NCBI GenBank assembly: GCA_016839585.1
Contig: JAEOTZ010000042.1
Coordinates: forward strand, 24,110-88,109
Direction of reading: 5' to 3'
From: Promethearchaeota archaeon
GTDB taxonomy: Archaea > Asgardarchaeota > Lokiarchaeia > Sigyniarchaeales > SOKP01
DNA length: 64,000 bases
Shown here: in pieces, positions 15,490 through 18,286 of the stretch
Numbering within the stretch: position 1 is the stretch's first letter
Layout of the letters: every line of letters begins with the position of its first letter
Program-made: the position numbers and the translations under genes
Notes under the pieces: model-generated
What the model saw: the letters and a program-made list of their open reading frames with translations, nothing else
Database searches by the model: none
Told to the model about the DNA's origin: nothing

Positions 15490-16776
15490 ATGAAAGAATT
15501 AAGAAAAAAACTAAAAATCACAAGTAAAGCGTTAGATACAGTAAATAAATTTCTTGTTGATGAAAATAATATTCTAATCAATAATTTATTTGAAATAATC
15601 GAAAAATATGGTGGCGTTGATGAAATCAATAAGAAAGCTAAAGAAGCAAGTGAATTAGATAATCTACTAAGTAAACTAAAAAATAAGAAGCCTGATTATG
15701 CGCAGGATATAGAATGGTTAATTGAACAAAGAGATAATAACGCTTTTATTAGCATACCTGAATATAGAAAGAAAATCCTGGGAGAAAAATTTTCAGAAAT
15801 GAGCTTTAATAAGGATTATGCTGTTACTTTAGAGCTTTCAGCTTGCCAGTACTTTCCATTTTTTATGGATATAGCAAGAGCCGCTATTGAAGATCAGAAT
15901 TTAATGCCAGGTAGAATAATTCGTGTAAGAAAAATGAAGGAACAAGAAGTAGATGGGGATCTATTAGCAATGGCGACTGCTATGCAAATTATAGGGGCAA
16001 CCTATGTCGAAACACTTGATACCAAGGGAACTGCTCCTGGTCCTGATGGATTTCCTGTAAATGTCCATTTAGGAGGACCAGAAACTATAACGGGTTATTT
16101 TGGTGGAGTGGGGCAACCTAATGATTTTGCTTTAAAGTGGGTTGATGAATATCTTTATTATTATACTAATTATGGTATCAAGCAAGTTCTAAATGTTAAT
16201 CCAGGAACGGTTTTACTAGGATATTTTATTCATAAATTAGGGATTAATAACGAATTTAAAATATCAGTATATATGGGAAATGATAATCCATATTCTTGCC
16301 TGTGGACTCTTTTAACAGCTAAACTATTCGCCAGAGAAGACGGAACAAGTCCGTTGATTGGTTTTAATCTTGCTAACTCAGTAAATAATGAAACAATTGA
16401 ACTCACTGCTCATATTAGAAAAGCATTTGATTTTGAAGATGTTGTCAGATTTGAACATCATGTGATTGAAACACAGAAAAGTATTGTACGCCAACCATAT
16501 GATCGAAGAGAAGATTTATTGGAAGTTGCTATGAAAGTGAAAAATGTCAGTGCTAAACATGAAGGCGGTGATGTAGAAATAGATAAGAATAGAGAACATC
16601 CTTCAGATATTTTAGATTATTTTAGGGATAAGCAAGAGATTATTGATTCAGGTCATTGGGAATTTATGCGTAGAAATCACCTTGATAGATATATTGCTAT
16701 TAATACTACGGCTAAAGTATTAACTGAAAACGGTATTGATATTATTGCTGCCCAAAATCTTCATCAAGTTGATTAA
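15490..16776 (+). CDS. Uncharacterised soluble enzyme-like protein, co-transcribed with the DapA-Fae fusion
   Basis: 428-aa ORF with GGAG RBS; Gly/His/acidic motifs (DTKG, NVHLGG, TITGYFGG, FEHH, KHEGG); 22-bp gap to next gene. Confidence 0.75.
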   Translation: MKELRKKLKITSKALDTVNKFLVDENNILINNLFEIIEKYGGVDEINKKAKEASELDNLLSKLKNKKPDYAQDIEWLIEQRDNNAFISIPEYRKKILGEKFSEMSFNKDYAVTLELSACQYFPFFMDIARAAIEDQNLMPGRIIRVRKMKEQEVDGDLLAMATAMQIIGATYVETLDTKGTAPGPDGFPVNVHLGGPETITGYFGGVGQPNDFALKWVDEYLYYYTNYGIKQVLNVNPGTVLLGYFIHKLGINNEFKISVYMGNDNPYSCLWTLLTAKLFAREDGTSPLIGFNLANSVNNETIELTAHIRKAFDFEDVVRFEHHVIETQKSIVRQPYDRREDLLEVAMKVKNVSAKHEGGDVEIDKNREHPSDILDYFRDKQEIIDSGHWEFMRRNHLDRYIAINTTAKVLTENGIDIIAAQNLHQVD

Positions 16777-16798
16777 ATAATAGAGGTTCGAAGAAAAG

Positions 16799-18286
16799 AT
16801 GAGTAAGTTTGACTTTAGACCCTCGGGAGTCATGCCAGCAATGGTAACACCATTTAATAAAGATGAATCGATAAACGAAGACCAATTAAGAAATTTAGTT
16901 AATCATCTTATTGAACAAGGGGTTACAGGATTAGTCCCTGTCGGTACTACCGGAGAATTTGTAAATATGACTTTTGAGGAACGTATAAAAGTAATTGAAA
17001 TTGTAGTGGATGAAACAAATGGTAGAGTTCCGGTTATAGCAGGAACAGGAGAGACAGGAACTAAGTTAGTAATTGATGCTACTAAGGCCGCAACTGATAT
17101 TGGTGCTGATGCAGTTTTAATAGTTACACCGTATTATTTAAAGCCAAAGGCAAAAGGGTTATATGATCATTACTTTACAATTACTGAAAAAACAGACATC
17201 CCTATAGTACTATATAATATCCCTGCTTGTACGGGCGTAGAATTGCCTTGGACTGTTGTGGAAGATCTCGTAGATATCGAAAATATTGTTGCTATTAAAG
17301 ATTCTAGTGGTGATTATAAATACTTTTCAGCATTATTGGAAAAAGTAAGTGATAAGATTTCAGTCCTTATTGGATGGGATGAAAATGTTCTAGGAGCTTT
17401 AGCTGGAGGTGCTGCTGGCTGTATCTTAGGTTCTGCAAATGTGTTCCCTAAAATTTGGCTCGAAATTTATAATCATGTAAAAAATAATCGTCTAGAAGAA
17501 GCTCAAGTACTTCAAAAGAAGGTCCAAAAAATAGCAAGACTTTTAATAAACTCAGGAGCATTAGGAGTTAAATCTTGTTTAAATATAATGAAAGTACCGG
17601 TTGGAAAAACTAGACAGCCCATTGTTATAGGAGACGCTCTTTCTTATGAAATAAAAGATGAATTAAGAGTTGAGCTTGAGAAATTAGGATTGATAGAAAA
17701 AATAGAAATCCAATTTGAATTAGGAGAAAAAACACTAACAAGTCGTTTTTATGCTGTTGGAATTACACCGAGGAAAATCATAAATTTCAAGTTAAAAGTC
17801 GGGGAATCTTTAGTAGGAAATCGCGTTGAACTTGCACATATTGATCTTTTAATTGGTGAAAAAGATGGACCTGTTGGACAAGCTTACGCTCAAGCTTTAA
17901 CTAGTCCTGAAGAAGGACGTGAAGGACTTCAGGTCATACTTGAGCCTAATATGCAAGTAAAACCACCCACAATCATGATTCCTACAGTTCGTCCGGTCTC
18001 TCTACGTCACGCAAGTTTAACTTATGGGCCTGCTCAAGCAGCAATAGCTAAAGCAGTGATGCAATGTGTAGAAGATGGAATTCTTCCAAAAGAATTAGCT
18101 GATGACATTGTTTTAATTGTAAATGTTTTTGTTCATCCAAGTGCGAGTGCAAGAAAAAGAATCTTCATTAACAATTATAAGGCAACTCGTAATGCGATTC
18201 GAAAAGCAATGGAAGGCTTACCAACTGTAGAAGATGGTATTGAAAATGCTGAAAGTGCCAGACATCCATTTAGAAACGATCCTTAA
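16799..18286 (+). CDS. DapA/NanA-family pyruvate aldolase fused to formaldehyde-activating enzyme (Fae)
   Basis: N-term: GTTGE, TPYY, LYNIP, AIKDSSG. C-term: GESLVG...AHIDLLIG..DGPVG, VKPPT, GPAQAAIAKAV, NYKAT, HPF. Confidence 0.88.
   Translation: MSKFDFRPSGVMPAMVTPFNKDESINEDQLRNLVNHLIEQGVTGLVPVGTTGEFVNMTFEERIKVIEIVVDETNGRVPVIAGTGETGTKLVIDATKAATDIGADAVLIVTPYYLKPKAKGLYDHYFTITEKTDIPIVLYNIPACTGVELPWTVVEDLVDIENIVAIKDSSGDYKYFSALLEKVSDKISVLIGWDENVLGALAGGAAGCILGSANVFPKIWLEIYNHVKNNRLEEAQVLQKKVQKIARLLINSGALGVKSCLNIMKVPVGKTRQPIVIGDALSYEIKDELRVELEKLGLIEKIEIQFELGEKTLTSRFYAVGITPRKIINFKLKVGESLVGNRVELAHIDLLIGEKDGPVGQAYAQALTSPEEGREGLQVILEPNMQVKPPTIMIPTVRPVSLRHASLTYGPAQAAIAKAVMQCVEDGILPKELADDIVLIVNVFVHPSASARKRIFINNYKATRNAIRKAMEGLPTVEDGIENAESARHPFRNDP

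Follow-up and report, generated by a model that had tools for sequence, protein, structure and literature searches.

Genetic composition of the locus and domain architecture of the fusion protein

We analyzed a stretch of 64,000 nucleotides, here referred to as the window, from a Promethearchaeota archaeon (assembly GCA_016839585.1, contig JAEOTZ010000042.1, positions 24,110 to 88,109 of the forward strand). The analysis was focused on one gene which joins an aldolase of the DapA family to a formaldehyde-activating enzyme (Fae), by which formaldehyde is loaded onto the C1 carrier tetrahydromethanopterin (H4MPT). All positions given below are those of the window unless a locus is named. The fusion gene, named P0001, is located at 16799..18286 on the plus strand and forms an open reading frame (ORF) that is uninterrupted over 495 codons.

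Three segments were distinguished within the encoded protein, all on the plus strand. Residues 8-293 (16820..17677) represent a class I pyruvate aldolase domain of the DHDPS/NAL family according to Pfam (PF00701, E-value 1.1e-78, profile positions 2-286 of 289), the alignment to Methanocaldococcus jannaschii DapA (2yxg), Foldseek and the motif table. A linker of residues 294-333 (17678..17797) follows, in which the secondary structure of the AlphaFold2 (AF2) model contains a predicted beta-hairpin at residues 301-320; the predicted local distance difference test (pLDDT) score of the linker ranged from 59 to 88. The C-terminal part, residues 334-491 (17798..18271), is a complete Fae domain. It matched PF08714 from profile position 1 to 158 of 159 (E-value 3.5e-55, 186.8 bits, cut-off 27) and spanned the NCBIfam profile TIGR03126 (one_C_fae) from end to end with 186.6 bits (cut-off 118).

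The aldolase domain carried the motifs GTTGE (residues 49-53, including Thr50 and Thr51), PYY (111-113), YNIPACTG starting with Tyr139 and KDSSG starting with the Schiff-base Lys167 (17297-17299). Lys167, the catalytic Tyr139, GTTGE with the Thr-Thr motif for the carboxylate of pyruvate, and PYY with the Tyr that reaches the neighbouring subunit were aligned with the same residues in solved DapA structures. In the dihydrodipicolinate synthase (DHDPS) of Escherichia coli, Arg138 binds the carboxylate of aspartate semialdehyde; its position was occupied by Cys144 (17228-17230). The AF2 model of the whole protein, built from a 60-row alignment, had a mean pLDDT of 87.6, and Foldseek superimposed its aldolase domain, a (beta/alpha)8 barrel, on 2yxg with a target TM-score of 0.96 and a root mean square deviation of 1.4 Å.

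The Fae part was aligned to residues 5-166 of the 169 residues of the Methylorubrum extorquens Fae (1y5y). Its motifs were AHIDL from residue 346 (His347, 17837-17839, and Asp349), YGPAQ from residue 409 (including Gln413), FVHP from residue 444 and a C-terminal ARHPF arm from residue 487. Of these, AHIDL was aligned with His22 and Asp24 of 1y5y, YGPAQ with its Gln88 and ARHPF with its C-terminal arm, which we take to line the site for H4MPT and formaldehyde between adjacent subunits.

These results agree with an initial annotation of the window made from the sequence alone. The intact Schiff-base motifs (GTTGE, PYY, YN and KDS) it had listed were all found where it had placed them, the exchange of arginine for cysteine within YNIPACTG was confirmed as Cys144, and the full Fae domain with the histidine of AHIDL was recovered by Pfam, NCBIfam and the 1y5y alignment. 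Judged from these motifs both active sites look intact, and we propose that the fusion protein is a bifunctional enzyme.

Relation to the DapA of the lysine pathway

The host genome (3.45 Mb, 99.2% complete) encodes a separate canonical DapA of 304 aa on contig C88. This protein retained the arginine (YNVPSRTG), and its gene adjoins dapB and the end of lysA. A look for canonical dapA and dapB genes elsewhere, as the initial annotation had advised, therefore led to a dapA-dapB-lysA cluster. Furthermore, a canonical Fae-Hps of 431 aa was present in the host (NF009833; locus L001 709-2004). A third DHDPS-like sequence was found on contig C62 (locus L005 193-2271, minus strand). Here, a diverged N-terminal domain (82 bits) with N at the Schiff-base Lys position is fused to a long kinase-like C-terminal region, giving a protein of 692 aa.

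In NCBI and JGI records the fusion is named 4-hydroxy-tetrahydrodipicolinate synthase. The name is explained by the score of P0001 against the dapA equivalog profile TIGR00674, which at 251.1 bits exceeds the cut-off of 206.15. However, none of the members of the fusion clade described below carried an arginine at the Arg138 position, where mostly C, V, A, T or L was found, and the clade leaves out the DapA of the host itself. The fusion is not the DapA of the lysine pathway, and the public label has probably been misapplied systematically in hundreds of archaeal metagenome-assembled genomes (MAGs).

Distribution and phylogeny of the fusion

More than 120 proteins with the same two domains and 84-95% identity to P0001 were found in independent assemblies, which are labelled as Promethearchaeota, Hod-, Thor-, Heimdall- and Hermodarchaeota. 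The fusion is therefore real and not specific to one assembly, a possibility that the initial annotation had raised and that is hereby ruled out. When 1.84 billion cluster representatives were searched exhaustively, approximately 13 further clusters (at 50% identity) with the full fusion were obtained, which shared 34-51% identity with P0001.

A scan of species-representative genomes detected the fusion in Lokiarchaeia-type Asgard archaea (76-95% identity to P0001), Bathyarchaeia (50-60%), Borr-/Heimdallarchaeia (48%), Thermoplasmata (46%), Chloroflexota/Anaerolineae (43-49%) and Thorarchaeia (41-44%), and in one MAG of the Thermodesulfobacteriota. Its presence in Korarchaeia is known from the other searches. 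The fusion is common in sediment archaea.

A FastTree phylogeny was built from 238 distinct aldolase domains. The 109 fusion proteins in it all fell into one clade (114 tips, support 0.996). The phylogeny proposed initially thus shows the fusions as a single clade apart from the host DapA. The nearest stand-alone relatives of this clade were uncharacterised proteins with K-D-S/T and without the arginine. KDS was present in 58 of 125 stand-alone relatives.

The distribution within the Asgard archaea followed that of the H4MPT pathway, for which Mch was used as the marker in a census of 121 Asgard genomes. Mch was found in approximately 50 of 53 genomes with the fusion, the three exceptions being among the most fragmented ones, and no fusion was found in the Asgard families of the census that were negative for Mch. 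In Asgard archaea the fusion is therefore restricted to lineages with the H4MPT pathway. The host genome carries Mch as well, and Fwd-like genes are located within the window. A link of the fusion to these Fwd genes had been suggested initially. It was not borne out, as these genes are encoded on the other strand at a distance of approximately 11 kb and are conserved as neighbours in close relatives only.

Single and tandem architectures

Two architectures were distinguished. Lokiarchaeia-type Asgard archaea and Bathyarchaeia carry a single fusion, in which the Fae domain retains AH[IV]DL, YGPAQ, FVHP and the C-terminal arm [AS][RK]HPF. Two tandem paralogs were found in Thorarchaeia, Korarchaeia, Thermoplasmata, Chloroflexota and others (loci L009-L012 and L065-L094, for example L075 2573-5454). 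The first tandem paralog has lost the His of AH[IV]DL and the C-terminal arm and mostly carries an altered FVHP (TVHP, DIDL), whereas all three are kept in the second. Conversely, YGPxQ is kept in the first and lost or altered in the second. This pattern suggests that the tandem paralogs are obligate heteromers with complementarily degenerated Fae interfaces. The degenerate paralogs formed a clade of their own (35 tips, support 0.984), and the duplication is therefore old.

The aldolase motifs were intact in both tandem paralogs with the exception of one lineage. In locus L010 (7544-10449, GCA_003560875.1) both paralogs lacked the Schiff-base Lys (LDATG and ADSSG at this position) as well as GTTGE. 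In one of the two, the histidine of the Fae domain, FVHP and the C-terminal arm have been retained. The L010 paralogs look like a scaffold made of pseudo-aldolases. Directly upstream of them lies a RibD_C (DmrA-like) gene, and MtnA/MtnB-like genes are located downstream.

The conserved partner gene U428

The gene upstream of the fusion (15490..16776, plus strand) encodes a protein of 428 aa without known family, here named U428, which is the conserved operon partner. It ends 22 bp ahead of the fusion. The spacer (16777..16798, plus strand), as read from the sequence, contains a GAGG resembling a ribosome-binding site at 16783-16786, 12 nt ahead of the ATG. The two genes are probably co-transcribed.

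To describe the neighbourhood of the fusion the ORFs of 87 loci were clustered, and U428 was the sole neighbour conserved across phyla. It was located upstream on the same strand in all 22 Lokiarchaeia-type loci, in two of them with two genes in between. These two loci (L006 and L007 6550-7983) belong to one Asgard lineage, and the intervening genes encode a polysaccharide deacetylase and a hexapeptide-repeat acyltransferase. In Bathyarchaeia U428 was present in 20 of 29 loci, and in 15 it was the immediate divergent neighbour. The Asgard and Bathyarchaeia proteins shared 60-79% identity, and a large number of polar residues (His, Asp, Glu, Lys and Arg) were invariant. U428 is an abundant and highly conserved family and probably an enzyme. 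Its metagenomic homologues number in the thousands.

Searches of Pfam, NCBIfam and PDB sequences, including profile searches, gave no match for U428. The AF2 model was poor (pLDDT 55.7), and its comparison to 48,161 chains with VIA-align led to weak barrel-like matches only (Z ≤ 6.1). The feature search of the ESM Atlas scored 0.75, and the complex prediction of fusion and U428 scored 0.00. A relation of U428 to the degenerate tandem paralogs was considered as well. As a very diverged copy of such a paralog it was rejected by hhalign (probability 0.2%). Nor are the two mutually exclusive, since both occur, unlinked, in Thorarchaeia and in one genome each of the Thermoplasmata and the Thermodesulfobacteriota.

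Within the family of the host (here f1), as represented in the 121-genome sample, both U428 and the fusion were present in 12 genomes and both were missing in seven, while two genomes were discordant at contig ends. The seven genomes with neither gene were 89-100% complete and included a congener at 99%. This joint gain and loss indicates that the pair is an accessory two-gene module.

Other neighbours were restricted to single lineages. A TrmI-type tRNA methyltransferase gene is located downstream in Bathyarchaeia, and genes for a UDP-sugar dehydrogenase, a peroxiredoxin and a nitroreductase are neighbours in the close Asgard clade. We judged these to be lineage synteny and not pathway partners.

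Genomic contexts of U428 outside the fusion locus

Four Asgard families that lack both the fusion and Mch (f5, f21, f22 and f2) also carry U428. In all 14 loci it was followed by an aminotransferase of class I/II resembling aspartate aminotransferase. In f21 a homoserine dehydrogenase (HSD; NF004912, 429 bits, cut-off 373) and an aldehyde:ferredoxin oxidoreductase (AOR) come directly after, and the cluster additionally includes a PatB-type C-S lyase. The same pair of HSD and AOR was found within a few genes of U428 and the aminotransferase in f5. The cluster (loci L105-L117, for example L114 7153-13724 and L106 6304-11759) may represent an unusual aspartate/homoserine route that employs AOR. 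At one f2 locus a diverged DHDPS-like gene lies ahead of U428. Two f2 orthologs of U428 (G090:C21:21163-22416 and G094:C112:1330-2589) contain one in-frame TAA each and are otherwise full-length, which could point to stop-codon recoding or to pseudogenes.

A different context was found in Thorarchaeia (f7). Here, U428 stands divergently beside threonine synthase (NF006050, 319 bits, cut-off 303) at all eight loci where both could be placed. A gene for an S-component of the energy-coupling factor type (PF07155) is located directly before U428 in the six Thorarchaeial loci that were fetched (L095, L097 and L121-L124), and in all four of these in which threonine synthase was called it is divergent from the pair of S-component and U428.

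The metabolites common to the aminotransferase, HSD, AOR, threonine synthase and an aldolase acting on pyruvate and formaldehyde are homoserine and 4-hydroxy-2-oxobutanoate (HOB). The missing homoserine kinase was considered as a role of U428. ThrB (TIGR00191) scored above the cut-off in only 10 of the 121 Asgard genomes, although approximately 70 have a threonine synthase match. ThrB is also rare in lineages without U428, and two genomes hold both genes. These data neither support nor exclude such a role.

Complementarity of the fusion and homoserine dehydrogenase

HSD was detected by the profile PF00742, which matched in 14 of 14 control genomes. Among fusion carriers, it was absent from the host genome, two complete chromosomes of Bathyarchaeia and one chromosome of Thermoplasmata.

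In a separate sample of 61 f1 genomes, 24 had the fusion without HSD, 10 had both, 23 had HSD only and 4 had neither (odds ratio 13.8). The corresponding numbers for the census of 121 Asgard genomes were 45, 8, 41 and 27 (odds ratio 8.5). Across Asgard genomes the fusion and HSD are therefore largely complementary. The same was seen at the level of genera. Six f1 genera without any fusion (18 genomes) were all HSD-positive, and three genera in which every genome carries the fusion (6 genomes) were all HSD-negative.

Families with threonine synthase and essentially without HSD all have the fusion, with HSD found in 1 of 22 genomes of f7, 0 of 14 of f12, 0 of 3 of f13 and 0 of 2 of f20. The fusion-free families with threonine synthase (f3, f4, f8, f18, f14 and f5) have HSD. 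According to a table count of the approximately 70 genomes with a threonine synthase match, the rough numbers were 29 with HSD alone, 21 with the fusion alone, 7 with both genes and 13 with neither of them. Counted by family, the pattern is seen again in at least four or five lineages. Two independent lines, both genomic, point to a connection of the fusion with HOB and homoserine: the U428 contexts and the complementary distribution of fusion and HSD.

Proposed reaction

Based on these data, the best reading of the fusion is an enzyme that would catalyze the reversible reaction of pyruvate with methylene-H4MPT to HOB and H4MPT and thereby feed homoserine synthesis. We assign to it a probability of about 0.45. 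The class I aldolase domain would form the enamine of pyruvate on Lys167, while the Fae domain would interconvert methylene-H4MPT with H4MPT and formaldehyde. The net reaction would be pyruvate + methylene-H4MPT + H2O <-> HOB + H4MPT, and coupling of both domains would avoid the release of free formaldehyde. In Asgard archaea and Bathyarchaeia the direction would most likely be synthetic, towards HOB. An aminotransferase would then convert HOB to homoserine for threonine synthase and possibly for methionine synthesis. In genomes without HSD this route would replace the step from aspartate-semialdehyde to homoserine. U428 may act somewhere on the same C4 branch. We infer the substrates, the coupling between the domains, the direction and the role of the partner from the genomic data described above.

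The sequence from pyruvate and formaldehyde via HOB to homoserine functions in engineered E. coli with promiscuous enzymes, where HOB has been described as a non-native metabolite (PMC8879981). In the host of P0001 the need for lysine is met by the separate dapA-dapB-lysA genes and formaldehyde handling via ribulose 5-phosphate by the separate Fae-Hps, which we count in favour of the proposed reaction. A conversion between HOB and pyruvate plus formaldehyde coupled to H4MPT had been proposed in the initial annotation, and this part now has support of a genomic kind from the U428 contexts and the HSD complementarity. The catabolic direction implied there fits less well, since the phyletic pattern points rather to biosynthesis, and for the link to sugar acids nothing was found in support.

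Several observations weigh against the proposed synthetic reaction. The genomes are related and phylogenetically clustered, and Fisher p-values therefore overstate the association with HSD. The association is also imperfect. Ten f1 genomes hold both genes, and three f1 genomes of good quality (G053, G162 and G167) hold neither. In the host genome the best ThrC-like protein scored 322 bits, below the cut-off of 421, ThrB was not found, and the organism may be a threonine auxotroph. With HSD, an above-cut-off ThrC and ThrB all missing, the host presents no clean pathway hole, and the argument therefore rests on the wider census. On the Thermoplasmata chromosome with the tandem fusion threonine synthase, HSD and U428 are all missing. 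The bacterial genomes with the fusion have kept HSD in four of five cases, and only two of the five carry Mch and Ftr. Furthermore, each of the two genes, U428 and the fusion, was also found in the absence of the other, and no aminotransferase, as required for the step from HOB to homoserine, is encoded beside the fusion. As the Schiff-base Lys was lost in both L010 paralogs, aldolase chemistry cannot be a feature of the whole family. Finally, lifestyle could act as a confounder if peptide-dependent auxotrophs had acquired a catabolic module.

Alternative explanations

The main rival is the same chemistry run in the catabolic direction. The source of HOB would be homoserine, a C4 sugar acid or whatever U428 produces. 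Cleavage of HOB would yield pyruvate and formaldehyde, and the latter would be captured by the Fae domain as methylene-H4MPT, to be oxidized or used in acetogenesis. Such a role would be in direct analogy to Fae-Hps, in which Fae scavenges the formaldehyde from aldol cleavage in methanogens and whose gene the host possesses as well. In its accessory nature and its patchy occurrence, even inside one genus, the fusion resembles many catabolic modules. The bacteria with the fusion mostly retained HSD, and the cluster of U428, aminotransferase, HSD and AOR can also be read as catabolism of homoserine or HOB to aspartate. However, it is not evident where HOB or homoserine would be abundant in the environment, neither a transporter nor an upstream dehydratase was conserved beside the fusion in the 87 loci, and it would be left unexplained why all lineages with threonine synthase and without HSD carry the fusion. 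We regard this direction as unlikely. An equally unlikely explanation is another pair of substrates, for example a different 2-oxo acid in a PanB-like reaction, a different aldehyde or a step in cofactor synthesis, with Fae handling the C1 unit or merely binding H4MPT. The substrate pocket is not readable from sequence, KDSSG and G[HW]DE are common to many uncharacterised proteins of the DHDPS family, and the neighbours elsewhere include RibD_C (DmrA-like), MoaA/MoaC, MtnA/MtnB-like proteins and S-adenosylhomocysteine hydrolase. On the other hand, only U428 emerged as a conserved neighbour from the 87 loci, and the homoserine and threonine contexts of U428 together with the HSD complementarity would have to be a coincidence. 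The host already has a strong panB (371 bits), and the specific case of a PanB analogue acting on alpha-ketoisovalerate and methylene-H4MPT was set aside for this reason.

Two further explanations concern the role of the aldolase domain. The fusion could be mainly architectural, the aldolase domain serving to scaffold or regulate the Fae oligomer, or the reverse, with uncoupled activities. The L010 tandem paralogs fit this idea, as AH[IV]DL, FVHP and the C-terminal arm persist there despite the loss of the Schiff-base Lys and GTTGE. Additionally, a fusion of the pentameric Fae with DHDPS, a dimer of dimers, must form an unusual assembly. Nevertheless, GTTGE, the catalytic Tyr and KDSSG are kept in nearly all fusions across several phyla apart from L010, which argues for selection on catalysis and makes a purely structural role improbable. 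Hardly credible is a genuine DapA that happens to carry Fae. It would account for the TIGR00674 score (251 bits, above the 206-bit cut-off), for M. jannaschii DapA as the closest solved structure and for the name given by NCBI and JGI. It is at odds with the Cys in place of Arg138 in P0001 and the lack of Arg throughout the clade, with the canonical dapA encoded separately beside dapB and lysA, with the separation of the clade from the host DapA, and with the lack of the fusion in many close relatives, in which lysine synthesis presumably persists.

Returning to the synthesis of HOB from pyruvate and methylene-H4MPT, we tentatively extend it to a wider proposal, which we regard as possible but less likely than not. 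Many Asgard archaea and Bathyarchaeia would make homoserine and threonine without HSD by means of a dedicated aldolase-Fae that hydroxymethylates pyruvate from methylene-H4MPT, U428 would be a new enzyme family in this branch, and the tandem forms would be obligate heteromers.

Comparison to known systems

The nearest known system is Fae-Hps, from which the fusion differs in the class of the aldolase and in the metabolic destination. In both cases Fae is joined to an aldolase-type enzyme with formaldehyde as substrate or product, both occur in archaea that use H4MPT, and the presumed logic is that formaldehyde is kept bound to H4MPT. In Fae-Hps, however, Fae is N-terminal and not C-terminal as in the fusion, and its partner is a hexulose-6-phosphate synthase with the fold of orotidine 5'-monophosphate decarboxylase instead of a class I Schiff-base aldolase of the DHDPS family. 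Fae-Hps is linked to pentose phosphates, whereas the proposed link of the fusion is to C3/C4 2-oxo acids. Accordingly, the Fae-Hps profile NF009833 matched P0001 in the Fae half only (profile positions 2-161 of 392; 149.8 bits, cut-off 274), and no hexulose-6-phosphate synthase domain was found.

With the DapA proteins of M. jannaschii (2yxg) and E. coli (1dhp) the fusion shares the fold, the Schiff-base Lys, the catalytic Tyr, the Thr-Thr pair and PYY. It is distinguished from them by Cys144 instead of Arg138, by KDSSG instead of K-E-A/S, by its separate clade, by the location away from dapB and by the added Fae domain.

Aldol and retro-aldol reactions on 4-hydroxy-2-oxo acids are also carried out by 2-keto-3-deoxygluconate (KDG) aldolase, YagE/YjhH and NanA. 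Like the fusion these enzymes have a Ser/Thr two residues past the Schiff-base Lys, which binds the 4-OH group. P0001 was, however, far under the cut-offs for NanA (166 bits, cut-off 382) and the archaeal KDG aldolase (113 bits, cut-off 390), and the locus comparison revealed no sugar-acid genes conserved near the fusion. PanB resembles the proposed reaction in that it hydroxymethylates a 2-oxo acid at C3 with a pterin-bound methylene unit. It has an unrelated fold, depends on metal and uses methylene-tetrahydrofolate and alpha-ketoisovalerate.

RhmA and YfaU, which are class II metal-dependent aldolases, provide the aldol step of the synthetic homoserine cycle. This cycle, constructed in E. 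coli, shares with our proposal the order from pyruvate and formaldehyde via HOB and homoserine to threonine (PMC8879981). It relies on promiscuous side activities of enzymes recruited by engineering and on free formaldehyde, whereas the fusion would be a dedicated natural class I aldolase coupled to H4MPT. In full-text searches of the literature, neither a DHDPS-Fae fusion nor a natural HOB route was found to be described. In papers on Asgard archaea and Bathyarchaeia, 'fae' is treated as formaldehyde detoxification or Fae-Hps alone is mentioned.

Implications

If the proposed reaction is correct, systematic misannotation as DapA would be corrected in public records. The steps of the synthetic homoserine cycle would have a natural counterpart, and a dedicated HOB aldolase would be available for synthetic methylotrophy. 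The metabolic hole of threonine synthase without HSD in Thorarchaeia and several other Asgard families would be filled. The aspartate family of amino acids would receive carbon directly at C4, supplied either by formaldehyde or by the H4MPT branch of the Wood-Ljungdahl pathway. This would represent a previously unknown exit of the archaeal Wood-Ljungdahl methyl branch into amino-acid synthesis, a route without cost of ATP or NADPH in archaea that rank among the most abundant and energy-limited of marine sediments and to which close relatives of the eukaryotic ancestor belong.

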